Below are positions 7,944 to 59,920 of a stretch of DNA of 64,000 nucleotides, one piece after another. The stretch comes from SAR202 cluster bacterium (GTDB lineage: Bacteria > Chloroflexota > Dehalococcoidia > Lucifugimonadales > UBA6952). The stretch lies in assembly GCA_009392515.1 (NCBI GenBank), contig VFGE01000031.1, positions 604 through 64,603 of the forward strand, read 5' to 3'. The notes beneath the pieces were generated by a model. The model saw only the letters and a list, made by a program, of their open reading frames with translations, was not told the origin of the DNA and did no database searches. Each line of letters begins with the position of its first letter. Position 1 is the first letter of the stretch. A program made the translations under genes and the position numbers.

Positions 7944-7954
7944 GAACTATCCAG

Positions 7955-9445
7955 CTAAAAATTTGACAAATATGCATTAATTAATTGTTTTACTGATTCA
8001 TCGACAGCATCAATAAAATATATTGGTAAAACTCCCATAAATACGATAAAGAAAGCAAGAATTATGGACGGTATCAATTCAAATCTACTAATATCAGGTA
8101 AATTTGCCCATTTTTCAGAAACAGTACCAAAAAATATTCTGGCAATTAATCGTAAGATATATATAGCTGTTATAGCTGCACCAATTACTCCTAGTATTGC
8201 CATAAGTGGATTTGTTTGAAATACTCCAATAAATATGAATAATTCTGCAACAAAACCACTTAATCCAGGTAACCCTAAAGAAGTTAAACCTGCTATGACA
8301 AATAAAGTTCCAGTAATACCCATAGGTTTAATTAAACCATCGAGTGTTTCAATGTCCCTGCTATGTGTTCGTTCATATATTACTCCAACTAATGCAAAGA
8401 ATAGTGCGGTCATTATTCCATGTGAAAACATCTGAAGAACTGATCCAGCTGTACCGATGACATTTAAAGTTGCAAGCCCCATTAATACATATCCCATGTG
8501 ACTTACACTACTATAACCAATGACATATTTCAGATCTTTTTGAGCCATTGCAGATAATGCTCCGTATACTACATTTATTGTACCCAGAATAAGTAAGAGC
8601 CACATCCATTCTTGTGCACCTGCAGGTAAAAATTCAATACATCGTAAAATTCCATAAGCTCCTAATTTCATTAATATACCTGCGTGGACCATACTTACAG
8701 AAGTTGGTGCTGCAACGTGACCGTCTGGAGACCAAGTGTGAAAAGGCCACAAACCAGCCAAGACTCCAAACCCAATGAAAAAGAATGGGAAAATAAAAAT
8801 CTGGAAATCATTTCCAATATTTGCGTTTATTAAGTCTTTGAATAAGAAACTATTTTGATTAGCAACAATAAATGTGGATAAAATTCCTATCCAGATAAGT
8901 ATGCTACTTGCAACAAGGACAAGCATTAATTTTAATGCTCCGTATTCTTTTGTCCTATTAAATGTTTCGAATTCTGAGCTGTGACCCCATACTGCAATTA
9001 GTAAATACATTGGAACAACTGCTAATTCATAAAAGAAAAAGAAGAAAAAGAGATCTTGTGATATAAATACACCATATACTCCAATAATTAGAAGAATATA
9101 TAAGATAAAGAATTCTTTTATTCTTTCGGTTATTTTGCAAGAAATAAGGGTTCCGGTTAGATAGACAATTCCCACTAATAAAACCATTAATGCGGATATC
9201 CCATCTACTCCAAAGTCTAGACGGATTGATAAACTGCGTAACCAAACAACCGAAAAATCAAATTGATTTGGATCTCTGGTTTGTGCAAAAGCCATAAACA
9301 CATATAAAGAGAAAATACCAGAAATAGCAGAGCCCAAAATTGTTATATTTTTTATAGTTTCCTCATTATTTTTGGGTATAAATAATATTGCCAGTAATGT
9401 TATTACTGGTACGATAAGTATTAAAGGTAATATCCAACTATCCAA
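7955..9445 (-). CDS. nuoM: NADH-quinone oxidoreductase subunit M
   Basis: 496 aa antiporter-like subunit with FHTWSPDGHVAAPTSVSMVHAGILMKLG. It sits between nuoL and nuoN. Confidence 0.9.
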   Translation of the reverse strand: MDSWILPLILIVPVITLLAILFIPKNNEETIKNITILGSAISGIFSLYVFMAFAQTRDPNQFDFSVVWLRSLSIRLDFGVDGISALMVLLVGIVYLTGTLISCKITERIKEFFILYILLIIGVYGVFISQDLFFFFFFYELAVVPMYLLIAVWGHSSEFETFNRTKEYGALKLMLVLVASSILIWIGILSTFIVANQNSFLFKDLINANIGNDFQIFIFPFFFIGFGVLAGLWPFHTWSPDGHVAAPTSVSMVHAGILMKLGAYGILRCIEFLPAGAQEWMWLLLILGTINVVYGALSAMAQKDLKYVIGYSSVSHMGYVLMGLATLNVIGTAGSVLQMFSHGIMTALFFALVGVIYERTHSRDIETLDGLIKPMGITGTLFVIAGLTSLGLPGLSGFVAELFIFIGVFQTNPLMAILGVIGAAITAIYILRLIARIFFGTVSEKWANLPDISRFELIPSIILAFFIVFMGVLPIYFIDAVDESVKQLINAYLSNF

Positions 9446-26387: not shown

Positions 26388-26943
26388 AGTATCCATAGAT
26401 ATCATATCAGAAGGTAAGTCAGGTCTTTTTGGCATTGGTGCAACAGAAGCAACCGTAAAGGTTACTCGGCTAGGAGATTCTTCCGCAGCATCAGGTACAG
26501 CAATAACATATCTAAATGAAATATTATCTTTTTTAGATGTTGATGCTTTAGCAACAATCAGAACTGTAAACAATAGTAAAAACAAAGGACCAGTTATTGA
26601 TATACAGGGTGAGGATGCTGGTTTACTTATAGGTAAAAAAGGTGAAAATCTAAGTGCATTACAATTTATATTAAATAGAATATTAAGATCTAACAGTGTC
26701 GATTCATTTGTTACGTTAGATATAGAGCAATACAAGGAAAGAAGATCGCAATCATTAAATACTTTAGCAGCTAAAGTTGCCGATAGGGTGATGAATAATA
26801 AACGTTCAATAACCTTGGAGCCGATGACAGCTTCAGAACGAAGAGTTATTCATACAGCTCTTGCAGATCATCCAGGTGTTAAAACCGAGAGTTTTGGTTC
26901 AGGGTATAACCGTAAAGTAGTGGTTATGCCAAATAACGCTTAA
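26302..26943 (+). CDS. jag: Jag/KhpB RNA-binding protein (Jag_N + KH + R3H)
   Basis: 213 aa. Domains are Jag_N (SGKTVEDAIEIALIELDVSRDEV), KH GxxG (IGKKGENLSALQ) and R3H (ERRVIHTALADHPGVKTES). It overlaps the yidC 3' end by 86 nt in the +1 frame. Confidence 0.88.
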   Translation: MRNSIKISGKTVEDAIEIALIELDVSRDEVSIDIISEGKSGLFGIGATEATVKVTRLGDSSAASGTAITYLNEILSFLDVDALATIRTVNNSKNKGPVIDIQGEDAGLLIGKKGENLSALQFILNRILRSNSVDSFVTLDIEQYKERRSQSLNTLAAKVADRVMNNKRSITLEPMTASERRVIHTALADHPGVKTESFGSGYNRKVVVMPNNA

Positions 26944-27506
26944 GAATTCTTTAGATTTAACCTGACCAATTCAATACTGTCTTTTAGATCGTGTTTTGTT
27001 TTTGGAGCAATATAATTAGGGTCATTTTCGACCTTCAATGTTACAAATATTGGTCCTGGGGTGTTTAATATAGTTTCAATGTCTAAAGTGAAATCTTCAA
27101 TATTGTCAAATTCAAACGTTTTTGCATAACCTACAGCATCAGCCATTTTTGAAAAAGAAAGTTGGCTACTTGAAGGTATCGGTTGATTTCCTGATCCTGC
27201 ATATGAACCATTCTGGACTACAAAATGGATGAAATTTTCAGGTTGAACCTCGCTAACGGTTGCTAATGAACCTAAGTTCATTAGCAAACTCCCATCGCCG
27301 TCTAAAACGATAACTTTACTGTTTGGTTTAGCTAATGCAATACCTAAACCAAGTGAGGATCCTTTACCCATACAGTCTTCAAAATATATATCCAAGTTTT
27401 GATTATTGCTAACAGAATTCCACACATGGCTACTTGATTCACAAGCAACCACAACTTCATCTTTTCGGTATTTACCAAGCTCAATAAGACAATTTTCAAT
27501 CAACAT
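26940..27506 (-). CDS. sulfopyruvate/phosphonopyruvate decarboxylase family, beta-type subunit paralog 2 (TPP-binding C-domain)
   Basis: 188 aa with the TPP motif LDGDGSLLMNLGSLATVSEVQPENFIHFVVQNG. It shares about 45-50% identity by eye with the upstream paralog over the core, including an identical EFDNIEDF. Confidence 0.7.
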   Translation of the reverse strand: MLIENCLIELGKYRKDEVVVACESSSHVWNSVSNNQNLDIYFEDCMGKGSSLGLGIALAKPNSKVIVLDGDGSLLMNLGSLATVSEVQPENFIHFVVQNGSYAGSGNQPIPSSSQLSFSKMADAVGYAKTFEFDNIEDFTLDIETILNTPGPIFVTLKVENDPNYIAPKTKHDLKDSIELVRLNLKNS

Positions 27507-27520
27507 TTGGTTTATCTATA

Positions 27521-28108
27521 TTAAAGTGTACCTAGTTCTTTTCGAAGATCTTTAATTGCGTCATTCGTAGAACGATTTCTTGGATCTCTAGTTCGTCTAC
27601 CAATTGGCTCATTTTGTATTTCAGGAACAGAATGGATATGAACAAAAATTGGACCTTCTGCTGTGAAAATTTCTTCTACCTTTCCAGCAAAGTCCTCGAT
27701 GTTATCAAATTCGTATGAAGCAGCATAACCTGCACCAGCAGCCATTTGTGAAAAATTAGCTTCATCGGCTGCTGCAATAGGTTGACCTCCAGTTACTGAA
27801 AAGTACCCATTATTAAGTACAAAATGGATCAAATTTTTTGGTTTTGCTCCAGCAATAGTCATCATTGTACCTAGGTTCATATTGAGACTGCCATCACCAT
27901 CGAAACAAACAACTTTTGTATCTGGTTGGGCTAGGGCTAAACCCATTGCAAAGTTTGATGCTTTACCCATTGCTCCGCCAACACTTACATCTCTTGATGG
28001 TTGGTCACTAGAATCTAACCATCCACGTGAACCCGTCATAGTAGGTATCGCAATCGCTTTACCTCTAAATTTTTTTATTTCTGCCATTAAATCGTCGTTA
28101 TTTATCAT
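27521..28108 (-). CDS. sulfopyruvate/phosphonopyruvate decarboxylase family, beta-type subunit paralog 1 (TPP-binding C-domain)
   Basis: 195 aa with the TPP motif FDGDGSLNMNLGTMMTIAGAKPKNLIHFVLNNG. Length and layout resemble ComE. Confidence 0.7.
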   Translation of the reverse strand: MINNDDLMAEIKKFRGKAIAIPTMTGSRGWLDSSDQPSRDVSVGGAMGKASNFAMGLALAQPDTKVVCFDGDGSLNMNLGTMMTIAGAKPKNLIHFVLNNGYFSVTGGQPIAAADEANFSQMAAGAGYAASYEFDNIEDFAGKVEEIFTAEGPIFVHIHSVPEIQNEPIGRRTRDPRNRSTNDAIKDLRKELGTL

Positions 28109-28156
28109 AGTTAACCTCGATACTAATTTTCATAAACATTTGTCTGATAAAATAAA

Positions 28157-28711
28157 TTATCCTTCTTTGATTATTTTTCTTTCTTCATCCAAATTCATTC
28201 TGTTGAATCCATGATATTCATCACCCACGAGAACTGCTACAGGTTTTTGGGTCGCTGCTGCAGTTTGAAATGCAAGTGTAATTCGATCTGCATCTCCATC
28301 ATGCTCAACTAGATAGTATTGTATTCCCCATGCATTAAGAGTTGGTTCAGTAAGTCTTGCGGCTGAGTCAGGAGTTATACCCCATCTAGTCCAGCCTCGG
28401 TACCCAATAATCATAACTATTGGTAAGTTACAATCTAATCCAAGTCCACGAATAGAATCTCCGGACTCCATCATCCCAGTATTTTGTACTAAGCAAACAG
28501 GTATTTTACCACCAACGATAACCCCTGCTGCTATTGCCATAGTTTCTGCTTCTCTTCCAACAGTGATAACTTCAATGTTAGGATCTTCTTCCATGGCGAT
28601 AAATAAATGATTAGTCTCGCTGTCAGGTAGATAAATCACATGAGTCACATTGTTTTCTTTAATTTTATCTAAGATAGTTAGAGGGCTTAACATAGCCTGT
28701 TGTTCAGTCAT
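28157..28711 (-). CDS. sulfopyruvate/phosphonopyruvate decarboxylase family, alpha-type subunit (TPP pyrimidine-binding N-domain)
   Basis: 184 aa from ATG 28711, which is preceded by GGGGAGG. The track ORF was extended to 28840. The pattern GREAETMAIAAGVIVGGKIPVCLVQNTGMMESGDSI...PIVMIIGYRG matches ComD/Ppd N-domains with the catalytic Glu. Confidence 0.75.
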   Translation of the reverse strand: MTEQQAMLSPLTILDKIKENNVTHVIYLPDSETNHLFIAMEEDPNIEVITVGREAETMAIAAGVIVGGKIPVCLVQNTGMMESGDSIRGLGLDCNLPIVMIIGYRGWTRWGITPDSAARLTEPTLNAWGIQYYLVEHDGDADRITLAFQTAAATQKPVAVLVGDEYHGFNRMNLDEERKIIKEG

Positions 28712-28877
28712 CAGAACCTCCCCATTGAGTAAAATTGCTACAGTGCTCACAATATAATAGAAATGTTTTTCTAAAGCAAGTAAATAGATGCATTTATTTT
28801 GCTTACCTACTTTGTTGTTAATATATTTAATATAATGCATAATTTATGTTGGTAATAAAAATAAGGAACTACTTAAA

Positions 28878-29982
28878 ATGGAAGAGTTAAATAATAGGTC
28901 TGTTAGTTTAGAATCAAAATTTGCAGATATAATGGTGCGTCTTTGACTTACCTAAAACAGAAGCTGAAATTGAGGCTTTACAACAGAAAACTTTAGCTGC
29001 AGACTTTTGGGATAATTCTTCTTTGGCTAAAGATGTAATGCAACGTTTAGCTGATCTAACAAATTTTGTTCAAAAGTGTCGTTCCCTCGAGTCAGATATT
29101 AGTGAATTAGTAGAATTAACTTCAATCATAGATGAGGATGATGTTGAGGTTGAGAAACAATTACTTGAAGAAATTACCAGGGTGGAAGAAGAATTATCTA
29201 TTGTAGAATTCAATTTACTCTTTTCAGGTGAGTATGACGATTCAAATTCTATACTTGCAATTCATGCTGGAGCAGGAGGTACTGAATCTCAAGATTGGTC
29301 TCAGATGTTGCTCAGGATGTATTTAAGATGGGCAGAGAAGAAAAATTATTCTGCTGAGATAATCGAGTTATCAGAAGGTGATGAAGCAGGTATCAAGAGT
29401 GTACTTATTTCCATAAAGGGACGATGGTCTTATGGGAATTTGAAATCAGAAAGAGGGGTTCATAGGTTAGTTAGAGTATCCCCGTTTGATGCTTCAAAAT
29501 CAAGACATACTTCATTTGCATTAGTTGAAGTTTTACCAGATACAGAAAAAAATGTTGATGTAACAATAGATAATGATGATTTGCGGATAGATGTTTTTCG
29601 AGCTGGAGGGCATGGAGGGCAAAATGTGCAGAAAAATTCTACAGCAATACGTATAACTCATTTACCTACTGGAGTTGTAGTCGTTTGTCAAAATGAAAGA
29701 TCACAATTACAGAATAAAGAACTCGCAATGCAAATATTGAAGGCACGATTACTAGATATAAGAATGAAAGAATTAGAGAAAGAACATTCTGAATTAAAGG
29801 GTGAACACATATCTGCAGAATGGGGAAATCAAATTAGAAGTTATGTTTTACATCCATATAAAATGGTAAAAGATCACAGAACTGGGCATGAAGATACTGA
29901 TACTAATTCTGTATTAGATGGTAATATCAATGATTTTTTACAATCATATCTGTTAAATCAAGTCTCTAATGATACTTTCTAA
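28878..29982 (+). CDS. prfB: peptide chain release factor 2, expressed via programmed +1 frameshift
   Basis: Frame 0 reads ATG 28878 ...MEELNNRSVSLESKFADIMVRL then TGA at 28944. The +1 frame from GAC 28945 continues DLPKTEAEIEALQQKTLAADFWDN... into the track ORF 29023-29982. That ORF contains the SPF tripeptide (RVSPFD) and the GGQ motif (AGGHGGQNVQK). Confidence 0.93.
28941..28947 (+). promoter_or_regulatory. RF2 autoregulatory +1 frameshift site CTT TGA C
   Basis: The exact canonical heptamer CTTTGAC is present, with an upstream GGTG that could act as an SD-like stimulator 3 nt before CTT. Confidence 0.9.
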
Positions 29983-30393
29983 TTATTTTTCTAAAGCACT
30001 GATTATTTGGTCAGAATAACTGCCTTCTTCTACTTCTAGTATATGGTCAACTACTTCTCTAGGTGACCAATCTTCTGCAGATGGTTTGGTATCAAGCTCT
30101 TCATCAGTTAATGTGCTTAACATTCCGATTAATTTTCCGCGACTTTCAGCTAACTCTTCAAGAATTTGTTCTGCTTCACTCAAATGTACGCCTAAAGATC
30201 TTACAGTTTTCGCTAGGTGAATAGTATGTTCTATTTCATGAGCAACTAGTCTGTAAAATATAAAACGTACAGATATATTATCTCTATTTGGTATTGGTAA
30301 AGTCATAGCCTCATCGGGAACATTTTGTAATTTAGCTATGACTTTTGCTCTAGATTCTGCCATATTTTTTAAATAATCATTTACTTTACTCAT
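29983..30393 (-). CDS. DinB-superfamily (DinB_2-like) metal-binding protein
   Basis: 136 aa with His-rich helices (RLVAHEIEHTIHLAK and WSPREVVDHILEVEE) and an AAGGAG SD in the 15-nt spacer. It is the last gene of a five-gene operon. Confidence 0.7.
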   Translation of the reverse strand: MSKVNDYLKNMAESRAKVIAKLQNVPDEAMTLPIPNRDNISVRFIFYRLVAHEIEHTIHLAKTVRSLGVHLSEAEQILEELAESRGKLIGMLSTLTDEELDTKPSAEDWSPREVVDHILEVEEGSYSDQIISALEK

Positions 30394-30408
30394 ATTATCT
30401 CCTTATTT

Positions 30409-31194
30409 TTAATGTAAATTTTGGTTGGTTGTTAATGGATATCTGATTCGGTCTACCCAAACACATTCATCAACTTTAATATTCATTACATTGATCTCTG
30501 GCCCAAGTGATTGGACTAACCATTCACATAATTCCATCCAAGGTTGTTCTAAATTGTAACCTCGACGGAGTTCAAAATAAATATGTTCCAAACCAACAGC
30601 TTTTGCGATTGTCGGCAATACATCGATCATATTATTTTCTCGTAGTAATTTTGTTTCTGCAGATTCTAAGATTACATGCTCGCTACCTGCCTCTAAATCT
30701 TCAAGTACTGCTTTGATGGCATCATCAGAGTTCATTGGAGAAACAGGCTTTTTCTTTCCAATTTCAGTAAACACTCTGAGTCCCATTGATTTTGCTTCCT
30801 TAATAATATCAGTACGTACTCCTGGAGGCATATCAGGGATACTATCTTCACTAACTTCTATAGCACTAAATCCTAACTCTAAATTTTTTTCAAAAAATTG
30901 ACGATGTTTACCCTGAACATAAGCCATTTCAAATACCATACCACCTATATAAGAACCAACATTATGTTTGGCTAAAGTTTTGTTTCTTTTTGAAAACCAT
31001 ATATCGTCATAAGTACTAATTGTTCTACGATGATTTTGAATTTTTACCCAGTCAATAATATCTTCAAAATCGTCGAGATAATCATCCATCATTGAGGTTG
31101 TCCACATAACATCAGTAACGCAAGTTACACCTTTAGACCTTGGTTTAGGATTAGGCAAATTTATTGAGATGAAATTAAATGAAGGTTTAGTCAT
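30409..31194 (-). CDS. (2R)-phospho-3-sulfolactate synthase (ComA) family protein
   Basis: 261 aa. The segments KPRSKGVTCVTD, IGGMVFEMAYVQGKHRQFFEKNLELGFSAIEVSEDSI and GLRVFTEIGKKKP align by eye with the archaeal ComA core (GGTLFEYA...LGFEAVEISDGS...EVGKK). The KFGWGTS-type segment is divergent (KIQNHRRT). Confidence 0.78.
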   Translation of the reverse strand: MTKPSFNFISINLPNPKPRSKGVTCVTDVMWTTSMMDDYLDDFEDIIDWVKIQNHRRTISTYDDIWFSKRNKTLAKHNVGSYIGGMVFEMAYVQGKHRQFFEKNLELGFSAIEVSEDSIPDMPPGVRTDIIKEAKSMGLRVFTEIGKKKPVSPMNSDDAIKAVLEDLEAGSEHVILESAETKLLRENNMIDVLPTIAKAVGLEHIYFELRRGYNLEQPWMELCEWLVQSLGPEINVMNIKVDECVWVDRIRYPLTTNQNLH

Positions 31195-31208
31195 TTTTGT
31201 TCCTTTGT

Positions 31209-32342
31209 TTAGTAAACTGGAGCTTCAATTTTAGCATCAACCTTTTTTGCAACTACTTCTTTTCCGGTTGTTTTAAATATGGTTTGATATTTTCTTGAAA
31301 GTATTCCGTAATATTGAATTAAACTTTTACCTTGTCGAGGAGTTAGTACATTGGGAATATTTTCACTGCTTATACGAATAGGTAGTATGGAAACTCTTTT
31401 TCTACCTAAGCTGTCTATATCTACCTGTGCAATACAAGAATCTCGCTCTATTGATCGAATTGCTGTTCCTCCAAATGAGAAATTCCCCAAACTGTAGAAA
31501 ATTGGTTTACCTTTGTAAATTTCTATTCCTTGGGGTTCATGAGGATGATGACCCATAATAATATCTGCTCCTGCATCTATTGCAGTATGAGCCATTTCTT
31601 CTTGATACTCTGTGACATAGCATGGAGCAATTTCTACTGGTACACCTAAAGATCGAGCATTACCCCTTGCAGTTTGTCCCCAGTGCCAACTAATTATAAC
31701 TATATCTGAATTAATTTTTGCCCTACGTACATCTTCTTTCATTACTTCTAAATGTTCTGGATTAGCCCAACTAATTATTCTTGGAATTGAACCTGGTTGA
31801 TATGGGGCATTATATGAAGCTTCGTATGCGGTTTGTGCATTTACTACTGCACATCCAGGTTTGTTTTCTCCTGCGGGAAATGTTAAAGGAACATAACAAG
31901 AGGTGTATGATAAAAATCCAATTTTTCTGCCCTTAGAGTCAAGATAAACAGGTTTATGTGCTTCATCTATATTCATCCCAGAACCAGCATGCGGTATTTT
32001 TGCTTTATCTAAAGCATTGAGAGTTTGAATAAGGCCTTCCTCTCCATAATCCATGGTATGGTTATTCGCAGTAGAAACAGCATCTACATTTGCGAATTTC
32101 AATATTTTTTCAATTGGACCAGAGGGCATTCGCACATGTCCTCCACTTCCTGATTCTGTTTTACCTGGAAGAGTAGATACTGATTCATCACATATTACTC
32201 CTTCGACATTTGCTAAGGTGATGTCACCATTTTGCAGAATTGGTAAAGCGTTCCCAAAGGCAATTTCCGGATCAATAGCTTCTGTAATTATTACATCTCC
32301 TACCATTACTATACGTAAGGTCGAATCAGATTTTTTAGGCAT
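31209..32342 (-). CDS. CapA-family metallophosphoesterase-fold protein (PGA_cap)
   Basis: 377 aa with motifs VMVGDV, ANVEGVI, STANNHTMDYGEEGL, HAGSGMNIDEA and GHHPHEPQGIEIYKGKPIFYSLGNFSFG. Confidence 0.85.
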   Translation of the reverse strand: MPKKSDSTLRIVMVGDVIITEAIDPEIAFGNALPILQNGDITLANVEGVICDESVSTLPGKTESGSGGHVRMPSGPIEKILKFANVDAVSTANNHTMDYGEEGLIQTLNALDKAKIPHAGSGMNIDEAHKPVYLDSKGRKIGFLSYTSCYVPLTFPAGENKPGCAVVNAQTAYEASYNAPYQPGSIPRIISWANPEHLEVMKEDVRRAKINSDIVIISWHWGQTARGNARSLGVPVEIAPCYVTEYQEEMAHTAIDAGADIIMGHHPHEPQGIEIYKGKPIFYSLGNFSFGGTAIRSIERDSCIAQVDIDSLGRKRVSILPIRISSENIPNVLTPRQGKSLIQYYGILSRKYQTIFKTTGKEVVAKKVDAKIEAPVY

Positions 32343-32357
32343 CTATATCTCCTTAAA

Positions 32358-33281
32358 TCAATGTGGCTCTGCTCGGTTCCATACTTCAACAAGTGTTCCT
32401 ATACAAGTTTTAGGATGAAACCATGCAACATAATTGATATCAAGACCCGGTTCAGGAACTGCTCCGATCTGTTGTATACCATATTCTGTAGCTTGGTCGA
32501 TTACTTTATGGACATTTGGAGACCATGGTCCGATATGATGGAAAGCAGCACCTTTTAGTGCTCTCTGCGCAACGAATTTAGCTGTACCACTATCTTCATC
32601 TGCAGGTATACTAATTTCAATTACACAACTACCTATTGGGAATTCTTTGAGATAAACAGGGTCATCGGGTCCGAGTCTTGGTGTACCGTCAGGGTTTGTT
32701 TGACGAGGTCCTCCTCTATCGCGTGTAAAGTCTTGTGGTAATTTAAAACATTCTTCCCAAAGAAACTTTTGTTCTTCATAACTTCTTGCAGCTATACCTA
32801 TATGGGCCATTCCATTAAAGTTTCCATTTCCTCTGTATGCTGGATGTGGATAATAATCTTCTGACGAGCAAACCATTAGCTGTAATCCAAAAGTTGTTTC
32901 TGGATCCAAAAGCACTGGGGTTTTCCCATTCCATCCCTCGAGTTGATCGCTTCTGATTTTTATACCTTTTGATTCAAGATGTTTGATATCTTCAGTTAAA
33001 TTATCGGAATTTAAGCACAAGTGATGTATTCCACCAGAAGATTTCTCTTGAATGAATTCATAAGCTTCTCCCTTTTCTGTTATAGGAGTAGCAAATTCTA
33101 CACACATTTCGGCAATAGGCATAAGTAAGCTGTTTACATCAGGAAGGGATCCTGGATTGATTTTTGATATAGGTGTCCGACTTTGATCAACTGACATACC
33201 AAATCCATTGCAGTATATATCTCTAGCTTTATCAAGGTCAGGGGCTAATATAGTTACATGGTCAATTCTAGTGAAAGACAT
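32358..33281 (-). CDS. two-domain VOC (glyoxalase/dioxygenase/epimerase-fold) protein
   Basis: 307 aa with an N-terminal RIDHVTILAPDLDKARDIY and a second module around MAHIGIAARSYEE. AAGGAG SD. Confidence 0.72.
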   Translation of the reverse strand: MSFTRIDHVTILAPDLDKARDIYCNGFGMSVDQSRTPISKINPGSLPDVNSLLMPIAEMCVEFATPITEKGEAYEFIQEKSSGGIHHLCLNSDNLTEDIKHLESKGIKIRSDQLEGWNGKTPVLLDPETTFGLQLMVCSSEDYYPHPAYRGNGNFNGMAHIGIAARSYEEQKFLWEECFKLPQDFTRDRGGPRQTNPDGTPRLGPDDPVYLKEFPIGSCVIEISIPADEDSGTAKFVAQRALKGAAFHHIGPWSPNVHKVIDQATEYGIQQIGAVPEPGLDINYVAWFHPKTCIGTLVEVWNRAEPH

Positions 33282-33294
33282 ACATTTCTCCTTT

Positions 33295-34182
33295 TCAGTT
33301 ATTATTTAGAGAATATAAAGGGCTAGTTTCTTCTATTTTCCCTTCTTCCGATAATTTTTCTAAGTGAGTTCGAACGTTTCGGGCAGCAGCCTCTCTAAGA
33401 TTAGGATTTAAATCTTTAGGATATACAAAATCTACAATTTCATAAACTGTTTGAGATGCATTTTTAGTTAAGGCATCAATAATTTGCGTTTCTCTTTTTG
33501 TGCGGTGCTGTATATAAGATTTTATTTTTGCAGTCCCATCTTCTACTAAAGCTCCATGTGCTGGAAAAACTTTTGTGGGTTTATGGGCAAGTATAATTTC
33601 TAGACTATTCATATACTGTTTTAAATTTCTTACTGAAGATGAAGAACTTCCTAATACTGTGTCTCCTGTAAACATAATTTGTTCTTCTTGTAGAAAATAG
33701 CAAATATGGTCATTTTCATGCCCTGGTGTGTAGAGAGCTAAAAGGTTGATATTATCATTAACCTTTAATATTTCTTGATCTTCTATAGAAAATACAATTC
33801 CCTCTTCTAGAATCATCTGCAATTTAGGTTTTAAATTTATATGGCATCCAACTTTACATTGAAATGTTTTTTGGAGACGATCAACTCCCCCAATATGGTC
33901 GTAGTGACCATGGGTAATATAAATGTTGGAAATATTTGGAGAGCCTAATTCTTTGTGATAGGCAAGTATTTGATCAGTCCAACTTCGATAATGTTCGCCA
34001 GTATCCATGACAACCATATTAGTATCAGGATCCCCAATGAAATATATACTTGAACCTCCTGGGTGATAAGTGCCGAACGGACTATCGTCTTCATTGATAT
34101 GGACTCTATAAACATATTCAGAAATTTTCATAGATGATTTTTTCTTTCTTTTTGTTGGATAAATATGAAAAAAATGTCTCAT
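33295..34182 (-). CDS. MBL-fold metallo-hydrolase
   Basis: It has the ITHGHYDHIGG (HxHxDH) motif and a later TPGHENDH. The true start is probably ATG 34131 (MKISEYVYRV) rather than 34182. Confidence 0.85.
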   Translation of the reverse strand: MRHFFHIYPTKRKKKSSMKISEYVYRVHINEDDSPFGTYHPGGSSIYFIGDPDTNMVVMDTGEHYRSWTDQILAYHKELGSPNISNIYITHGHYDHIGGVDRLQKTFQCKVGCHINLKPKLQMILEEGIVFSIEDQEILKVNDNINLLALYTPGHENDHICYFLQEEQIMFTGDTVLGSSSSSVRNLKQYMNSLEIILAHKPTKVFPAHGALVEDGTAKIKSYIQHRTKRETQIIDALTKNASQTVYEIVDFVYPKDLNPNLREAAARNVRTHLEKLSEEGKIEETSPLYSLNNN

Positions 34183-34200: not shown

Positions 34201-34243
34201 ATAGGTTGTTTATTTTTGTCGTCAACATCTATAAGTTGTTTAT
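34201..34243. promoter_or_regulatory. pair of 13-nt direct repeats in a divergent promoter region (candidate operator)
   Basis: ATAGGTTGTTTAT (34201-34213) and ATAAGTTGTTTAT (34231-34243) sit 30 nt apart. The second overlaps a TATAAT (34241-34246). They lie between the MBL operon and the CoA-transferase gene. Confidence 0.25.
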
Positions 34244-34318
34244 AATTTCTTATATACTTGCTTCATTCGATTATAACGCTATTCATTCTATTTTTATGTA
34301 AATGGGGGGATATACAAA

Positions 34319-35605
34319 ATGAAAGGTCCTTTAGAAAATATACGTGTTTTGGATTTTTCAGAAATTATAGCAGGTCCTTTTGCAGGTATGCTTTTATCTG
34401 ATATGGGCGCTGATGTCATAAAAATAGAACCACCTTGGGGAGAGCCGTGGAGATTTTCTCAGCCAATCGTTCCAAATGAAAGTCGGACATATATTAGTTT
34501 AAATCGTGGGAAAAAAAGTCTTACCTTGGATTTAAATAAAGATTCTGCAAAGCAAATTATCTATGATTTAATCAATGATATAGACGTTGTAATTGTAAAT
34601 TACCGTCCAGATGTCCCCGCAAATCTTGGGATAGATTATGATACTTTGTCAAAAATGAATCCTAAATTAATTTATTGTCAAAATACTGCCTACGGAAGTG
34701 AAGGAAATGATAGTTATCGTCCAGGTTACGACATAATTATCCAAGCTATGAGTGGATTGATGGCTGCTGATGGTAAACTTAATGAAGGTATACCACAATC
34801 TATAAGTGCGACTGCTCTTGCTGATTTTTCAACTGCATTGACTATGAGCATGTCAATATGTGCGGCTTTACATGCCAGATCAATCACTGGAAAAGGACAA
34901 AAAATAGAAGCTTCTTTATTAGCAACAGCATTAGCATTACAGACTACAAGTTTTTTAGAAGTTGAAATGGTTGATAAAGAACCAAAAGAAGAGCTAATTG
35001 AAACAATTAATTTATTGAGAGAAACCGGTGCTCCTTACAGTGATATCCATGATTATGTTGATGGAATAAGACTAAATAATCCTGCAGCATTCGGCATTAG
35101 AATGATTTATTACAGAACCTATCAGGCTAAAGATAGTGTTATAGCTGTAGCCTGTTTAAGTGACAGACTTAGAAAAAAAATGGCAGATGCTATAGGAATT
35201 TATGATCGAAGGTTTGAACCAGGTTACAAAGCTGATCTGGAAGATAATATTGCATTTACTCAAAATCTTAGAAAAGAAGTAGAAGAACTATTCCTTACTA
35301 AAACTGTAGAAGAATGGATGGAAGTCTTGGATAGTGCTGGAGTTCCATGTGGCCCTGTAAAATTCGTATCTGAACTTATGACAGATAATCAAGTTATTGC
35401 AAATGATATCATTCGTGAACATGAACATCCGTTGGTTGGAAAAATAAAAATGATAGGGCCTATAGTTAAAATGTCTGAAACTCCACTTGTCCCACATGAT
35501 CCATCTCCGACGTTAGGTCAAAATAATGATGAGATATTAAGTGCATTAGGATATTCAGAACAAAAGATAAAAGAATTGAGAGATTCTGGGGCTGTTGGTG
35601 AATAA
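34319..35605 (+). CDS. family III CoA-transferase (CaiB/BaiF family)
   Basis: 428 aa with N-terminal PLENIRVLDFSEIIAGPFAGMLLSDMGADVIKIEPP, typical of the family. A G-rich SD is present. Confidence 0.9.
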   Translation: MKGPLENIRVLDFSEIIAGPFAGMLLSDMGADVIKIEPPWGEPWRFSQPIVPNESRTYISLNRGKKSLTLDLNKDSAKQIIYDLINDIDVVIVNYRPDVPANLGIDYDTLSKMNPKLIYCQNTAYGSEGNDSYRPGYDIIIQAMSGLMAADGKLNEGIPQSISATALADFSTALTMSMSICAALHARSITGKGQKIEASLLATALALQTTSFLEVEMVDKEPKEELIETINLLRETGAPYSDIHDYVDGIRLNNPAAFGIRMIYYRTYQAKDSVIAVACLSDRLRKKMADAIGIYDRRFEPGYKADLEDNIAFTQNLRKEVEELFLTKTVEEWMEVLDSAGVPCGPVKFVSELMTDNQVIANDIIREHEHPLVGKIKMIGPIVKMSETPLVPHDPSPTLGQNNDEILSALGYSEQKIKELRDSGAVGE

Positions 35606-42579: not shown

Positions 42580-43593
42580 ATGAAAGTTTACTGTGGTTTG
42601 CCGAGAGATAATTTAAAAGATATTCCTAAACTTGCTCAAGCAGCAGAAGAGTTAGGTTTCGATGGCATATCTTTTGGAGAATTAGCACATGATTCATTTT
42701 TGTTATCAACTTTGGCTTTAGAACATACAAAAAAAATAAAGGTTGGTACCTCTATAGCTATTGCTTTTGCCCGAAGCCCAATGGTTTCTGCTTACATGTC
42801 ATGGGATTTACAGCGGATGTCTGATGGTAGGTTTGAATTAGGATTAGGTTCACAGGTGAAAGGTCATAATGAACGACGATTTGGAGTTCAGTGGTCTGCT
42901 CCTGCACCGCGTATTAAGGAATATGTTGAATCTATACGTGCAATTTGGGATTGTTGGCAAAATGGATCACCGTTAAATTATCAAGGAAAACATTATTCAA
43001 TTACTTTGATGACCCCAGAATTTAATCCTGGTCCTTTAGATTGTGAACAACCTCCAATTTATATAGCTGCTGTTGGTGAAGCTATGACTAGAGTCGCAGG
43101 TAATGTTTGTGATGGGATACTTTTGCATAGTTTTAATAATAAAAGATATGTTGATGAAGTAATTTTGCCAAATATAAAAGAAGGTGCTAATTTGTCTGGA
43201 CGTAATTTAGAAGATATTTCAATATCAGGCGGTGGAATGATCGCAACAGGAGCAACCGAAGAACAAGTTACGCAACAAAGAGAAATTTGTAGAAAAAGAA
43301 TATCTTTTTATGGTTCTACCCGTAGTTATAAAACCGTTATGGATATGCATGAATGGGGAGATACCTGTCTAAGATTACATGACATGTCAAAAGAAGGTAA
43401 ATGGGATGAAATGCCCAACTTAATTGATGATACTATGGTGGATACTTTTAGTGTATCTGGGACATATAAAGAAATTGGTCCCTCTTTGAAAGAGCGTTTT
43501 GGAGGGTATGCTTCACGAATTTCAATTGGCCTTCCTTCTGATATAAAAGATTATAATGATGTTGGCGATTTACTTACATATCTACATGAATAA
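42580..43593 (+). CDS. LLM-class (luciferase-like) F420-dependent oxidoreductase
   Basis: 337 aa TIM-barrel LLM pattern (GFDGISFGELAHDSFL and LGLGSQVKGHNERRFG) with an AAGGAG SD. The cofactor assignment is by family resemblance only. Confidence 0.8.
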   Translation: MKVYCGLPRDNLKDIPKLAQAAEELGFDGISFGELAHDSFLLSTLALEHTKKIKVGTSIAIAFARSPMVSAYMSWDLQRMSDGRFELGLGSQVKGHNERRFGVQWSAPAPRIKEYVESIRAIWDCWQNGSPLNYQGKHYSITLMTPEFNPGPLDCEQPPIYIAAVGEAMTRVAGNVCDGILLHSFNNKRYVDEVILPNIKEGANLSGRNLEDISISGGGMIATGATEEQVTQQREICRKRISFYGSTRSYKTVMDMHEWGDTCLRLHDMSKEGKWDEMPNLIDDTMVDTFSVSGTYKEIGPSLKERFGGYASRISIGLPSDIKDYNDVGDLLTYLHE

Positions 43594-43954: not shown

Positions 43955-45604
43955 ATGAATAATATATTTTTAGTTGGTTTTTCAGGTACTGGTAAATCGG
44001 AAATTGGACCGATTGTTTCTAATATACTGTCATACAAATTTATAGACCTTGATACCGAGATAGTTAAATATTTCAATAAATCTATTGATAAGATATTTTC
44101 AGAAGATTCGGAAGAGGTATTTCGAAAGAAAGAAAGTGAATTATTAGAATATTATGGATCTTCATCACAACTTGTTATAGCCACTGGTGGTGGGGCTATA
44201 ATTTATAATGATAATTATGAATTAATGAAATCTAATGGTTTCATTGTTTGCTTAGAAGCAACTCCACAAACTATATACAATAGACTTACAAGTGAGGATG
44301 GAAAAAACGAAATACGACCAGTTCTAAAAGATAATGTAAATATAGATTCCATCACGAATATAAAAAACAAAAGACAAAAATATTATGCTAAGTCTGATTG
44401 GACTATACATACTGATAATCTAACACCTTACCAATCTGCTGAAGAGGTATCAAAAATATACAAAACTTTTGTTAATTTAGATACTTCAAAGTTCATTCAG
44501 AAAGATATGAAAGCCGATTTAGCTGGAATAGTTACTTATACTAATGGAGTTTGCCCTATATATTCCGGTTGGGATATATATAAGGATATTCCGAAAATTT
44601 TTTCACGATTAAATATTCAAGGCAATTTATTTCTAATTTCTGATACCAATGTATATAGCTTATATGGTCAAGAAGTAGAAAAATATATTGCTTCTACAGG
44701 TAAACAAGTTTTTTCTCATGAGTTAGAACCTGGGGAACATAATAAAACCTTTGATGCAATATCTAATGTCTATAGTTGGCTAGCAGAATCAAAGGCACAA
44801 AGACGAGATACTATTGTTGCCTTAGGTGGTGGAGTAGTTGGAGATATGGCCGGTTTTGTAGCAGCAACATATAACCGTGGGTTGGGATTTATACAAATTC
44901 CAACTAGCCTAGCAGCTATGGTTGATGCATCGGTTGGTGGGAAAACAGCAGTTGATTTACCAGAAGGGAAAAATCTTGTAGGCGCTTTTTATCAACCTAA
45001 AGTGGTAATTGCTGATGTATCTACTTTGAAATCTCTACCGCATCGTGAAACCATGGAGGGTTGGGCTGAGGCTATTAAACATGGATTAATATTAGATAAG
45101 CAATTATTTGAGGTTTTTGAAAACCGATATGAAGAATTATTAAATTTAGAACCTAACCTTACAACAGATGTTGTCAAACGAAGTATTCAAATAAAGGCAG
45201 AAATTGTATCTCAAGATGAAAAAGAAACTAGAGGTATTAGGACTTTATTAAATTACGGTCATACAATTGGTCATGGACTTGAAGCTGCAACTGGATATCA
45301 TCAATTATTACATGGAGAGGCAGTATCAATAGGAATGATGGGTGCTGCAATGATAGGAAACAAAATGGGTATCACAGACAGTTCTATATTAGAACGCCAA
45401 TTATCTATTTTGAAAAAGTTTGATTTACCTATATCCTTTAATAATATTACTATTGAATCAATAAAATCAGCCATGTCTCTCGATAAAAAAGCAGTAGGTT
45501 CATCGATAAATTGGGTTCTACTATCTGAGATAGGGCGAGCTGAAGTAAATTCAAATGTTGATAATTCTGTGGTGGACAGTGTTTTAGAAGAATTATCCTC
45601 TTAA
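43955..45604 (+). CDS. bifunctional shikimate kinase / 3-dehydroquinate synthase (AroK-AroB fusion)
   Basis: 549 aa. The N-terminal part has a P-loop GFSGTGKSEIG and an ATGGG lid region. The C-terminal part of about 350 aa has AroB motifs (GGGVVGDMAGFVAATYNRG, NYGHTIGHGLE). Confidence 0.92.
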   Translation: MNNIFLVGFSGTGKSEIGPIVSNILSYKFIDLDTEIVKYFNKSIDKIFSEDSEEVFRKKESELLEYYGSSSQLVIATGGGAIIYNDNYELMKSNGFIVCLEATPQTIYNRLTSEDGKNEIRPVLKDNVNIDSITNIKNKRQKYYAKSDWTIHTDNLTPYQSAEEVSKIYKTFVNLDTSKFIQKDMKADLAGIVTYTNGVCPIYSGWDIYKDIPKIFSRLNIQGNLFLISDTNVYSLYGQEVEKYIASTGKQVFSHELEPGEHNKTFDAISNVYSWLAESKAQRRDTIVALGGGVVGDMAGFVAATYNRGLGFIQIPTSLAAMVDASVGGKTAVDLPEGKNLVGAFYQPKVVIADVSTLKSLPHRETMEGWAEAIKHGLILDKQLFEVFENRYEELLNLEPNLTTDVVKRSIQIKAEIVSQDEKETRGIRTLLNYGHTIGHGLEAATGYHQLLHGEAVSIGMMGAAMIGNKMGITDSSILERQLSILKKFDLPISFNNITIESIKSAMSLDKKAVGSSINWVLLSEIGRAEVNSNVDNSVVDSVLEELSS

Positions 45605-46333
45605 TGTTGTTAGTAAAGTTAATGATGCTCCAGTCATTATTATTAAAATAATGATTCGCGTAAAAAGTTGTTGATTAATTATTGGTAGAATATTTTTCCC
45701 AATAAAATATCCAATTAACACTGATGGTATGAGGAATAAATTTGCAGCTAATGTATCACGTGTTATAAAACCACTTATAAAAAGTGATACCACAGTAACT
45801 GTATCAATGATAGAAAAATAAAGTGCTAGATTGTTTCTAAAGTCTAATTTCTCCCATTTTTGGTTGATGAGAAAAATAGTAATTGGTGGTCCAGATAAGC
45901 CCGAGGTACTCACTAATATACCACTAAAAAATCCAGCGAACATGGAGGTTAATTTCTCCCGTTTAATAATTATTGTTTTTCCTGTAAAAAGAAATAAAGC
46001 AGCTATTAAAATTATAATAGATATTATTATTTTTAATACGTACATATCTAAATTGGATAGTATGATAATTCCCAGTGGTATTCCTAAAATTGCAGAACCA
46101 GCGATAGGGAGAATTTTGTCTGGTTTTAAATATTGTTTATTTTCAATAGCGATAATATAGTCATTAATTAAAACTAAAGGCATGATTATTGGTACAATAA
46201 TTGTTAAATCTAGTACTGGCAAAAGCAAGGGCGTAGAGACCAATGCAAACCCAAAGCCAACAGTGGTTTTCACGGTTGATGCAAATAAAATAACTAAAAT
46301 TAGAATAATAATGATGTTGGTTTCTAATAACAT
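45593..46333 (-). CDS. TauE/SafE-family anion (sulfite-type) permease
   Basis: 246 aa with about 8 TM segments and duplicated 4-TM halves carrying G-rich motifs (TTVGFGFALV and SGLSGPP). Confidence 0.8.
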   Translation of the reverse strand: MLLETNIIIILILVILFASTVKTTVGFGFALVSTPLLLPVLDLTIIVPIIMPLVLINDYIIAIENKQYLKPDKILPIAGSAILGIPLGIIILSNLDMYVLKIIISIIILIAALFLFTGKTIIIKREKLTSMFAGFFSGILVSTSGLSGPPITIFLINQKWEKLDFRNNLALYFSIIDTVTVVSLFISGFITRDTLAANLFLIPSVLIGYFIGKNILPIINQQLFTRIIILIIMTGASLTLLTTLRG

Positions 46334-46408: not shown

Positions 46409-47191
46409 ATGGATATATTGCTTTATTTAGTGGTTTTATTATTAACTTTTCTTGGTGGATGGTTGTCTGGCTTATTTGGTGTTAGTGGGGCTGTAGTAAC
46501 TGTCCCATTTCTTTTGTATGGTCCGCAAATTCTCGGTATGCCAGCAATAGATATCAAGCAAGTTATGGCTATATCTCTGGTTCAAGGCCTAGTATCTAGT
46601 TTTACCGGGGCATTAGTTTATAAAAAGAGTGGTTTAATTGATAGAACTATTGTCATTTGGGGAGGTATGCTAGTTGCTGCAGGAGGTTTAATTGGTGGTA
46701 TTCTTTCTAAGTGGTCACCGGATACACTCTTATTATTTATTTTTGGTTCAATGTCTACAACAGCTGTTATTTTAATGCTATCGAATTCCGGAGAAAGTAT
46801 AGAAGATAAGGATAATAAATCTACGAATTATAAGATTTTAGCAATATTTTTTCCTGAAGGATTAATGGCTGGTATGGTTGGTGTTGGAGGTGGTTTTTTA
46901 ACAGTTCCAATTTTGAATAGACTAATGAAAATCCCACTACGAAACGCAATTGCGAGTTCTCTTGCGATGACATTTTTTGCAGTTTTTGCTGGATTATTAG
47001 GTAAAATTATTACTTTTCAGGTACCATTTATCCTTTCATTATTAGCAGTGGCAGGAGGAATACCTGGAGCAAAGTTAGGAACATTTGTAAATTCCAAATT
47101 AACTTTGAAAAATTTACGTTTTGGATTTGTTATATTATTGACGGTAATTTCTATAAGAATATGGTTCGATGTAGCAACAGCTATACTATAG
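46409..47191 (+). CDS. TauE/SafE-family anion (sulfite-type) permease
   Basis: 260 aa with GLFGVSGAVVTVP and GMVGVGGGFLTVP repeat motifs characteristic of the family. Confidence 0.82.
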   Translation: MDILLYLVVLLLTFLGGWLSGLFGVSGAVVTVPFLLYGPQILGMPAIDIKQVMAISLVQGLVSSFTGALVYKKSGLIDRTIVIWGGMLVAAGGLIGGILSKWSPDTLLLFIFGSMSTTAVILMLSNSGESIEDKDNKSTNYKILAIFFPEGLMAGMVGVGGGFLTVPILNRLMKIPLRNAIASSLAMTFFAVFAGLLGKIITFQVPFILSLLAVAGGIPGAKLGTFVNSKLTLKNLRFGFVILLTVISIRIWFDVATAIL

Positions 47192-48248
47192 CAAGATTTT
47201 CTTTAACTTGAGATATAACTTCTCTAGGGATTTTTTCTAAATAGGCTTCTGGTCCATTATCTGGGACAGGAGGATTGGGTATTGGATGAAGAACAACATA
47301 TTCAAACTCTATGCCTGCTTTTTCGCATTTTTTTAATATTTCAGTAATTTGAGTAACTATTTGATTTACGCCACCCATTAAGCAAAAAGCTTTTGCTAGA
47401 TTTTCAGACATAAAATCCACTGCTTTGCCACTTTCAATCAAATTGGCTGCATGATGAAAATCTGGCCAAACTAAACCTTGTTTTTTAAGTTCATCTGGGT
47501 GTGGACCATTCCAAGGAATATCTAAATTATCTACAAGCATTGGAGAATATTCGTAATAACCAGCAGCCATTGATTTACCCATTAGCATTGCATCATCTTC
47601 ATCTTCACAAAAAACGGTATGGAAAACAGTACCAAGTTTAACGTTGTTAGGATTTCTACCTGATTTTATAGCGCCTTCTTTTATTCTATTAACTGATATT
47701 TCTATATTTTTTATATCTGTACCAACTCTGATAAAAACACCGTCTGCACACGATCCTGCCATTTCTAAAGTTTTAGGTCCTCCAGCGGCCAACCATACAG
47801 GTACATTTTGAGGAAACGGAAGTTTTGCTGGTCTTGCTGCCCCAACTTCAACTTCTTCTCCAGCAAGCAGGGATTTTATTATATGAATTCCTTGTTCTAA
47901 TTCCTTTATTTTAGCAGGTTTTAGCCCAGCCAAACGTACTGCTGTATCACCTACCCCCATTCCTAATACTGTTCTATTTGGTGCAAGTTCGGCAACAGTT
48001 GCAATGCTTGAAGCTGTAACAGATGGATGCCTAGTAATAGGATTGGTTAATAACGGCCCAATAGTAATTGATTTTGTAGCTTGAGCTGCACCTGATAAAA
48101 GGACATAATTATCTCGTAATCTTAAGGGCGAGTCAGGGAGAAAAGCACAGTCCCATCCTGCCTGTTCAGCTCGAAGTACATCTAAAGCAAATGAAGAAAG
48201 AGAACTAGTATTATGTCTATTTAGTCCGAATTTGGGTATATTCATCAA
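47181..48248 (-). CDS. LLM-class flavin/F420-dependent oxidoreductase (Mer/SsuD-fold)
   Basis: 355 aa luciferase-like pattern (AEQAGWDCAFLPDS and LGMGVGDTAVRLAG). It is the last gene of a three-gene operon. Confidence 0.8.
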   Translation of the reverse strand: MMNIPKFGLNRHNTSSLSSFALDVLRAEQAGWDCAFLPDSPLRLRDNYVLLSGAAQATKSITIGPLLTNPITRHPSVTASSIATVAELAPNRTVLGMGVGDTAVRLAGLKPAKIKELEQGIHIIKSLLAGEEVEVGAARPAKLPFPQNVPVWLAAGGPKTLEMAGSCADGVFIRVGTDIKNIEISVNRIKEGAIKSGRNPNNVKLGTVFHTVFCEDEDDAMLMGKSMAAGYYEYSPMLVDNLDIPWNGPHPDELKKQGLVWPDFHHAANLIESGKAVDFMSENLAKAFCLMGGVNQIVTQITEILKKCEKAGIEFEYVVLHPIPNPPVPDNGPEAYLEKIPREVISQVKENLAIV

Positions 48249-56012: not shown

Positions 56013-56420
56013 TTATTTTACAGGTTCTCCGTAGTTATTTGAATCAGGATCACCCTCTTGAAACATTGTCCAATAGATAAATATAAAAGCAGGAATAAGT
56101 AAATAAAAACCAGGAATGAGCATTAGTATAAACCAGGGGGATTTGTTAGTATCGTGGAGCCTTCTTACAATAACAGCAATTCGAGGGACAAAAAAGAGCA
56201 ATATAATTATTATTTGTATTCTCTGTATCCAGTTTATTAAGTTCAGTTCGGTAATCAGATTGTTAGCGTTTATCTCCAAAAAAGCTGTAATTATACCGAA
56301 GCCTAAACCAATAAAACATTCAAACAAAACCCAGTAGTTGAATTCTGATCTGCGAGCTCTTCCCTCAAATCCGAAATAATTATCTACTAAAACTGATTTG
56401 ATTGCGTCTGTAAAATTCAT
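56013..56420 (-). CDS. DUF805-family inner-membrane protein (paralog A)
   Basis: 135 aa with GRARRSEFNYW and VRRLHDTNKS hallmark motifs. The C-terminus is NNYGEPVK. Confidence 0.8.
   Translation of the reverse strand: MNFTDAIKSVLVDNYFGFEGRARRSEFNYWVLFECFIGLGFGIITAFLEINANNLITELNLINWIQRIQIIIILLFFVPRIAVIVRRLHDTNKSPWFILMLIPGFYLLIPAFIFIYWTMFQEGDPDSNNYGEPVK
56020..56053 (-). repeat. 34-nt exact repeat copy 1 (3' end of DUF805 paralog A)
   Basis: ATATTATTTTACAGGTTCTCCGTAGTTATTTGAA is identical to 56447-56480. It covers the stop codon and the last 10 codons. Confidence 0.9.
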
Positions 56421-56446
56421 AATTTATATATATATATTTAAAATAG

Positions 56447-59912: not shown

Positions 59913-59920
59913 GGAAAAAT

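Follow-up and report, generated by a model that had tools for sequence, protein, structure and literature searches.

Two described groups of proteins serve as reference points for the locus analyzed here. The named members of the ComA family (PF02679) are phosphosulfolactate (PSL) synthases, which join sulfite to phosphoenolpyruvate (PEP): MJ0255 of M. jannaschii (1QWG), YitD of B. subtilis (1U83), and XcbB of Xanthobacter. The PGA_cap family (PF09587) includes MslH, which epimerizes the C-terminal Trp of a lasso peptide. MslH is a Ca-dependent C-alpha epimerase with the catalytic dyads His88/Asp91 and His295/Asp11 and the Ca ligands Glu44, Asn87, His259, and His261 (PMC10406935). In the same family, PgsA affects stereochemistry: the poly-glutamate of B. 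subtilis is 75% D, and becomes 95% L when pgsA is deleted (PMC6029982). Here, we describe a five-gene operon in which a ComA-like gene follows a CapA-like (PGA_cap) gene, within a window of 64,000 nucleotides from a SAR202 cluster bacterium (contig VFGE01000031.1, positions 604 to 64,603, of assembly GCA_009392515.1). The gene order is metallo-beta-lactamase (MBL), vicinal oxygen chelate (VOC), CapA, ComA, DinB. The ComA-family enzyme that we found is of a rare, remodelled type and is paired with a new partner; it is a target for enzymology rather than a demonstrated pathway, and the operon is more likely to process organic acids than to constitute a new sulfolactate pathway.

The first-pass annotation of this DNA had recognized the operon from its spacers, and the sequence reads as claimed: the cistrons are 13 to 15 nt apart, and three spacers carry AAGGAG and one AAGGAA (Table 1). 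With these short Shine-Dalgarno (SD) spacers, a sigma-70-like site upstream of the first cistron, and no terminator-like site detected on the minus strand inside the unit, the five genes form a real single-promoter polycistronic operon. A Pfam search also confirmed the family assignments, namely MBL, two VOC domains, PGA_cap, ComA, and DinB_2.

The ComA-like protein belongs to the same family and has the same fold as the PSL synthases. It scores 144.7 bits against PF02679 (gathering threshold 25.2), with residues 16-254 covering positions 5-240 of the 243 in the profile. An AlphaFold2 model (predicted local distance difference test 87.7, predicted TM-score 0.87) consists of eight strand-helix units forming a (beta/alpha)8 barrel, and Foldseek searches with this model returned 1QWG first (E 1e-17, TM 0.78) and the B. 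subtilis PSL synthase 1U83 third (TM 0.70). We aligned the 137 full-length family members nearest to the query with the M. jannaschii sequence. The universal residues are kept in the query, both in the N-terminal half (K17-P18-R19 of the KPR motif, D28, K51, G84-G85, E89, and E113) and in the C-terminal half (E144, G146, K148, E177, E208, N235, N238, and R251). Among them, E113 and K148 align with M. jannaschii E103 and K137, which are reported to be a Mg ligand and the general acid, respectively.

Beyond this family-wide core, the protein differs from the PSL synthases. It is 29% identical to them and scores 122.2 bits against the NCBIfam model for PSL synthase (TIGR03849, EC 4.4.1.19), which has an equivalog cut-off of 280 bits. 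Ten positions that vary elsewhere in the family are at least 88-100% conserved among canonical members, and all ten are replaced in the query (M. jannaschii residues first: K21 to V29, G47 to H55, T48 to R56, T76 to M86, D106 to E116, G107 to D117, R170 to A179, P207 to R210, Q209 to L222, and Q210 to C223). The PSL-synthase loops DKG, K-FG[WT]GT[SA], and PGGT correspond to DVM, K-IQNHRR, and IGGM in the query, and SDG[ST], E[GA]RESG, and EAPxKxQQ correspond to SEDS, ESAETK, and FELRRGYNLEQPW, the last with an insertion of eight residues. The KFGWGTS region, in which the first-pass annotation had noticed divergence, reads KIQNHRRT. In the AlphaFold2 model the changed motifs sit right after strands b2, b3, b4, b6, and b7, on the catalytic side of the barrel, and the query has gained an Arg/His-rich pocket (H55, R56, R57, R210, and R211).

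As a control, we looked at loci with canonical comA genes. In 26 of 60 Paenibacillaceae loci, ComB (PF04029) is an adjoining conserved neighbor of comA, beside the spoIIIA operon, and these ComB-linked enzymes, despite an identity of only ~28% to the archaeal enzyme, contain every canonical motif. The canonical motifs thus track PSL-synthase function, and the lack of all of them in the query makes the sulfolactate reading weak. The Paenibacillaceae loci (within L014-L084) place canonical comA beside the spoIIIA sporulation operon at, for example, 9437-10759 of L015 and 10736-11488 of L023. In some of these genomes the open reading frame (ORF) running through comA encodes ~440 aa, suggesting a ComB-ComA fusion or overlapping genes. 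The query has no ComB neighbor: ComB and ComC (PF02615) domains are absent from the ~48 annotated ORFs of the window, as the first-pass annotation had stated.

Many other family members lack the canonical motifs as well. An exhaustive hidden Markov model (HMM) search over 1.84 billion representative proteins found 703 ComA-family clusters, and R170 is absent from 100 of the 137 aligned members. Most of the Pfam family is thus non-canonical and, to judge from literature searches, uncharacterized; searches on PF02679, on phosphosulfolactate synthase in SAR202, and on phosphosulfolactate with sulfite in Chloroflexi returned nothing relevant. The query's own subgroup, group A, corresponds to about one cluster (528 bits, after which the next score falls to 240). 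The nearest proteins outside it, group B, are 32-38% identical to the query, score at most 240 bits against the group A profile, and come from, for example, Chloroflexi UBA6077 and Thermodesulfobacteriota metagenome-assembled genomes. Like the query, group B proteins have a SEDxIP loop, have lost R170 and KxQQ, and often have [DN]-H after the b2 Lys. The NHRR and RRGY insertions and the link to CapA set group A apart from group B.

The CapA-like protein scores 210.5 bits against PGA_cap (gathering threshold 27) and has a calcineurin-like fold. Its N-terminus (MPKKSDSTLRIVMVGD) contains no hydrophobic segment, so the protein is soluble and cytoplasmic, and the window contains no pgsB/pgsC (capB/capC) neighbors. 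A role in capsule synthesis or as a poly-gamma-glutamate synthase subunit was rejected because of the missing membrane anchor and the missing pgsBC genes. The sole solved relatives are the MslH structures. In an alignment to 8GQ9, D16, E47, N94, H95, D98, H220, and H268 of the CapA-like protein match MslH D11, E44, N87, H88, D91, H259, and H295, and the equivalent of MslH H261 is Gly222. Both catalytic dyads and three of the four Ca ligands are therefore kept. The score against the MslH equivalog NF038314 is 101.9 bits, compared with a cut-off of 700, and there is no lasso-peptide cluster here and no gene nearby for a ribosomally made, post-translationally modified peptide. The substrate is likely a small molecule rather than a peptide.

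The first-pass annotation had proposed that the CapA-like protein supplies the phosphatase step. Five of the seven YmdB-type metal ligands listed in PMC10406935 have counterparts in the protein; the equivalents of Asn40 and His175 are missing, as they partly are in mononuclear MslH. Phosphoester hydrolysis would be possible by sequence, but the available precedents, MslH with its conserved dyads and PgsA with its control of the D/L ratio, suggest by analogy stereo-inversion next to a carboxylate, and speak against the proposed step. We know of no PGA_cap member that has been shown to be a phosphatase.

The genomic neighborhoods of the non-canonical relatives point to organic acids. Group B genes are linked to genes for TctCBA and for aconitase-like, MR_MLE, and HMGL-like proteins. 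One locus (L009) encodes a GntR/FCD regulator, TctC-TctB-TctA, and the large and small subunits of an aconitase, and another (L010) aconitase-like subunits, TctC/TctA, and an ornithine cyclodeaminase-family protein. A Crp regulator, MR_MLE, and TctA/TctC are encoded in L012; an HMGL-like/homocitrate-synthase-like protein, a nitroreductase, and TctC in L011; and a PEP-mutase/isocitrate lyase (ICL)-family protein in L007 and L008. Within group A, the contig of a 54% identical protein (L094) ends in a TctC gene, and that of a 65% identical protein (L002) contains a divergent PrpD/MmgE gene and genes for short-chain dehydrogenases/reductases. ComB, ComC, and recognizable sulfite or sulfonate genes were found in none of the group B loci, nor in L094 or L002, and linkage to ComB, ComC, or xcb genes was absent from the window's annotated ORFs and from the group A and B loci. 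No homologues of CapA, MBL, VOC, DinB, or the window's thiamine pyrophosphate (TPP) enzymes were found around group B and canonical ComA genes. Homologues of the CapA-like protein itself (40-52% identity) are clustered with genes for TctCBA, MR_MLE, ICL/PEP-mutase, Amidohydro_2, and PrpD and for aconitase-like and HMGL-like proteins, which is the theme of the group B ComA neighborhoods. One such Tct/MR_MLE/ICL/CapA/HMGL cluster (L090) encodes a protein of 278 aa that matches nothing in Pfam, at 7778-8620, with the aconitase-like subunits on one side and an Amidohydro_2 gene on the other; a search for cryptic ComA proteins in the CapA-clade loci, including this protein, gave no match at E<=1.

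The CapA-ComA pair itself recurs outside the close relatives of the window. On the divergent contig L002, the genes for the ComA-like protein and a CapA protein (74% identity) lie ~2 kb apart in another arrangement that lacks MBL-VOC. This recurrence upholds the link between the two genes made in the first-pass annotation and is the one independent piece of evidence that CapA and the ComA-like protein belong together. The full arrangement, consisting of the CaiB gene, the operon, prfB, and the TPP alpha/beta/beta genes, is limited to close relatives (L001, L005, L006, and L085-L089), which have ComA identities of 81-98% and come from marine metagenomes, including those of TARA and ALOHA. A contig of 'Dehalococcoidia bacterium ALOHA_A2.5_17' shows 98% protein-level identity to the window. 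This conservation is synteny by descent and therefore says little on function.

The MBL and VOC genes form a module that exists without the CapA-ComA pair. The MBL protein matches Lactamase_B (74 bits) and BLACT_WH (48 bits), has an HGHYDH motif at residues 91-96 and a C-terminal winged helix, and has human LACTB2 (4AD9, 130 bits) as its best solved relative; it thus shares the HxHxDH motif with LACTB2/glyoxalase-II-type hydrolases and the winged helix with LACTB2. A role as a persulfide dioxygenase, which would produce sulfite, was considered and set aside because the best match is LACTB2. The start of the gene is uncertain (ATG 34182 or ATG 34131); gene calls for relatives give 277 aa. The VOC protein is a tandem fusion. 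It matches methylmalonyl-CoA epimerase (TIGR03081) in two stretches with 108.9 bits, just below the cut-off of 114.95; this enzyme aligns to each half, and both halves match 3RMU, 6QH4, and 1JC4 in the PDB. In the DinB-like protein, the DinB_2 match (44 bits) comprises only the second half, on the N-terminal part of the profile. The two halves of the protein, each a helix-hairpin of ~68 aa, are repeats of each other (local alignment score 59).

VOC homologues with 58-62% identity are located directly downstream of a LACTB2-like MBL gene with a winged helix in three Chloroflexota contigs (L097, L098, and L099), and in none of these does CapA or ComA follow the pair. L097 shares more with the window, namely CaiB (57% identity), MBL (52%), VOC (62%), a 137-aa DinB (45%), and prfB (64%), and L098 and L099 have MBL-VOC only. 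A further VOC homologue (47% identity) lies among thiolase-like and enoyl-CoA hydratase genes. Because MBL-VOC, with CaiB and DinB, occurs elsewhere without CapA-ComA, it appears to be an older module, probably related to coenzyme A (CoA) esters. To our knowledge, a conserved MBL-VOC gene pair has not been described in Chloroflexota. In two independent contigs an NHL-repeat gene precedes the pair (L097 4254-8912 and L098 3954-6668), and NHL-MBL-VOC points to a conserved module. L097 also has, between its NHL-repeat and MBL genes, a gene for a full-length TPP enzyme; identity with Xsc was considered and rejected, as the protein matches a generic acetolactate-synthase-like subfamily instead. With MBL-VOC but no CapA-ComA in L097 and L098, and CapA-ComA but no MBL-VOC in L002, the five genes are not co-conserved. 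This is largely the outcome that the first-pass annotation had itself named as counting against its proposal.

Our preferred reading, which we hold tentatively, is that of a mosaic operon: a CapA-like/ComA-like pair has been inserted and processes a polyanionic carboxylate beside a thioester-handling MBL-VOC-CaiB module. The operon structure, family and fold assignments, motif loss, modularity, and gene contexts were observed directly, and we infer the chemistry and the substrate class throughout. The first module, the LACTB2-like MBL and the tandem VOC with CaiB and the mini-DinB nearby, may handle acyl-CoA or other thioesters by transfer, epimerization, and hydrolysis. The second module is the CapA-like/ComA-like pair, placed between VOC and DinB in this lineage only. 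The ComA-like barrel keeps the family-wide catalytic scaffold, and every substrate-facing loop that is invariant in PSL synthases has been rebuilt. It would carry out enolate chemistry with Mg, and its substrate would be a polyanionic 2-substituted carboxylate, not PEP plus sulfite; the reaction could be an addition/elimination or the exchange of an alpha proton. The CapA-like protein may be a metal-dependent epimerase, or less likely a hydrolase, acting on the same compound or on its product. Overall, the operon would serve to catabolize or salvage an organic acid that is imported and probably chiral.

Several points weigh against this reading. The Arg-rich pocket could still bind the PEP phosphate and sulfite in another geometry. 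A group A ComA is linked with CapA in no more than two independent contexts, namely this lineage and L002, and the CapA gene of L002 is cut by the contig end; a metagenome scan for further group A loci gave close relatives only, so that the independent contexts stay few. The Tct/aconitase context comes mainly from group B, at 32-38% identity to the query. CapA-ComA may be a lineage-specific addition or may have been lost elsewhere, with too few genomes to polarize the change. In addition, all five cistrons are tightly coupled in translation, which argues that they work together.

The CapA-like/ComA-like pair might even be an unrecognized two-enzyme system, which we consider unlikely. The remodelled ComA-like barrel would catalyze a Michael-type addition or elimination with a non-PEP acceptor or a non-sulfite nucleophile, possibly still involving a sulfonate or a phosphate ester. 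The PGA_cap epimerase or hydrolase would be a soluble, cofactor-independent, metal-dependent enzyme acting on a small-molecule carboxylate.

It is similarly doubtful that the operon is one of convenience, in which MBL-VOC, CapA-ComA, and DinB serve two or three unrelated functions and are co-transcribed and coupled in translation, with no pathway in common, in a streamlined, low-GC genome (the window has ~33% GC). The separation of the modules in other genomes fits this explanation, as does the character of the region, which is rich in housekeeping genes (prfB, yidC, jag, recG, alaS, and aroE) with minimal intergenic space. However, the uniform SD spacers and the single promoter are maintained in relatives with 81-98% ComA identity, and five metal-dependent enzymes for small carboxylate- or thioester-type substrates would suit one pathway.

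The pathway put forward by the first-pass annotation, in which the ComA-like protein joins sulfite to PEP, the CapA-like protein stands in for ComB, and ComDE-like and TauE proteins extend the route, with sulfolactate serving sulfite detoxification or as a precursor, seems to us improbable. It gains from the ComA family membership, fold, and universal core residues, from a pocket that is still strongly cationic (R56, R57, R210, and R211), from a CapA protein that is calcineurin-like in fold, retains most of the metal ligands, and accompanies group A ComA in two lineages, and from the ComB and ComC genes not found in the window. A TPP enzyme similar to sulfopyruvate and phosphonopyruvate decarboxylases is also encoded 1.1 kb away. 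Against this stand the score far under the equivalog cut-off; the loss of the ten canonical-specific positions, among them R170 and those of the loops KxQQ and FG.GT(S); the lack of ComB, ComC, and sulfite genes near the non-canonical relatives examined; and the association of characterized PGA_cap members with epimerization.

The outlying genes do not help this pathway either. The ComDE-like and TauE genes that the annotation had brought in do exist where it placed them, but both are separate transcription units, surrounded by housekeeping genes. The TPP genes, one alpha and two beta, fall in the sulfopyruvate/phosphonopyruvate decarboxylase clade and form their own unit beyond prfB. The alpha protein scores 85.3 bits against TIGR03845 (cut-off 147.95) and the beta proteins 104.6 and 94.8 bits against TIGR03846 (cut-off 221.5); against phosphonopyruvate decarboxylase the betas score 117-119 bits (cut-off 312.5), which is above their sulfopyruvate scores and again below the cut-off. 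TauE/SafE is a generic anion-permease family, and the two genes lie 11 kb away, between aroKB and genes for luciferase-like monooxygenases. Neither the TPP nor the TauE genes show linkage past synteny in close relatives.

Detoxification with a thiol cofactor, with VOC as a glyoxalase-I-like and MBL as a glyoxalase-II-like enzyme, DinB as an S-transferase, and ComA/CapA making or recycling a sulfonate-bearing thiol or its precursor, is very unlikely: the best NCBIfam match of MBL is hydroxyacylglutathione hydrolase (69.7 bits), VOC has weak glyoxalase-I matches, and DinB matches N-terminal regions of mycothiol/bacillithiol transferases, but all of these matches are far below cut-offs, the VOC halves are closer to methylmalonyl-CoA epimerase than to glyoxalase I, MBL is closest to LACTB2, thiol-biosynthesis genes were not seen in the window, and the CaiB neighbor points to CoA esters.

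The remaining features of the window are collected in Table 1 with the operon. The stop codon of the DinB-like gene abuts that of the convergent prfB gene with no intergenic base, and a terminator-like hairpin was not detected there. The prfB gene, which encodes RF-2, shows the classical programmed +1 frameshift: ATG 28879 opens a 21-codon frame that ends with CTT TGA C (28939-28945), and the +1 frame runs on into a 319-aa ORF listed from 29023. The split TPP decarboxylase, an alpha-type subunit (TPP_enzyme_N) followed by two paralogous betas with ~37-41% mutual identity, has an unusual one-alpha, two-beta arrangement. Two genes for luciferase-like flavin monooxygenases bracket the TauE/SafE pair, and a fused shikimate kinase/3-dehydroquinate synthase gene lies in the same stretch. 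A giant protein, hydrophobic in its N-terminal region, is encoded by an open frame of at least 1373 codons that extends past the window start. The run with two cyclopropane-fatty-acid-synthase-like methyltransferases resembles a conserved cluster for lipid modification. Scans of the window against Rfam and for tRNAs gave no matches.

Table 1. Coordinates of the operon and of other features in the window.
Feature	Position	Strand	Length	Remarks
Cistron 1, MBL (Lactamase_B + BLACT_WH)	33295-34182	-	295 aa	
Spacer cistron 1/2	33282-33294	-	13 nt	AAGGAG; tga-AAAGGAGAAATGT-atg
Cistron 2, VOC (two Glyoxalase domains)	32358-33281	-	307 aa	
Spacer cistron 2/3	32343-32357	-	15 nt	AAGGAG; tga-TTTAAGGAGATATAG-atg
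Cistron 3, CapA/PGA_cap	31209-32342	-	377 aa	Pfam
Spacer cistron 3/4	31195-31208	-	14 nt	AAGGAA; taa-ACAAAGGAACAAAA-atg
Cistron 4, ComA-like	30409-31194	-	261 aa	Pfam
Spacer cistron 4/5	30394-30408	-	15 nt	AAGGAG; taa-AAATAAGGAGATAAT-atg
Cistron 5, DinB-like (DinB_2)	29983-30393	-	136 aa	Pfam
Sigma-70-like site TTGACG-16-TATAAT	34225->34198	-		11/12 match; directly upstream of cistron 1
Divergent promoter-like site	34219-34246	+		10/12 match; faces CaiB gene; overlaps the minus-strand 11/12 site
Family-III (CaiB-type) CoA-transferase, divergent	34319-35605	+		Pfam CoA_transf_3, 337 bits
prfB (RF-2)	28879-29982	+		
TPP genes, one alpha and two beta	26940-28840	-		
Luciferase-like flavin monooxygenase	42580-43593	+		
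Fused shikimate kinase/3-dehydroquinate synthase	43955-45604			
TauE/SafE	45593-46333	-		
TauE/SafE	46409-47191	+		
Luciferase-like flavin monooxygenase	47181-48248	-		
Giant protein	1-~4100	-	>=1373 codons	runs off window start
DUF805 proteins, two tandem paralogues	56013-56857	-	135 aa each	
Two cyclopropane-fatty-acid-synthase-like methyltransferases, flavin amine-oxidase-like protein, DUF1365 protein	58734-62977	+		

Overall, our analysis bears on how ComA-family genes are read in marine Chloroflexota, where 'ComA' hits are taken as signs of sulfolactate or coenzyme-M-type sulfonate metabolism. That reading is unsafe: the 100 of the 137 nearest members mentioned above lack the canonical Arg and the loops characteristic of genuine PSL synthases, and those of them with a readable context lie in clusters for the uptake and catabolism of organic acids. 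If the CapA-like/ComA-like pair were indeed a two-enzyme system of the kind outlined, it would provide the first small-molecule function for PGA_cap, and the large non-canonical half of the ComA family would gain its first function. Characterizing a non-canonical ComA and its soluble CapA partner would give a chemistry to two sizeable groups of proteins that have a name and no function, and would also refine models of organic-acid processing by deep-ocean Dehalococcoidia.

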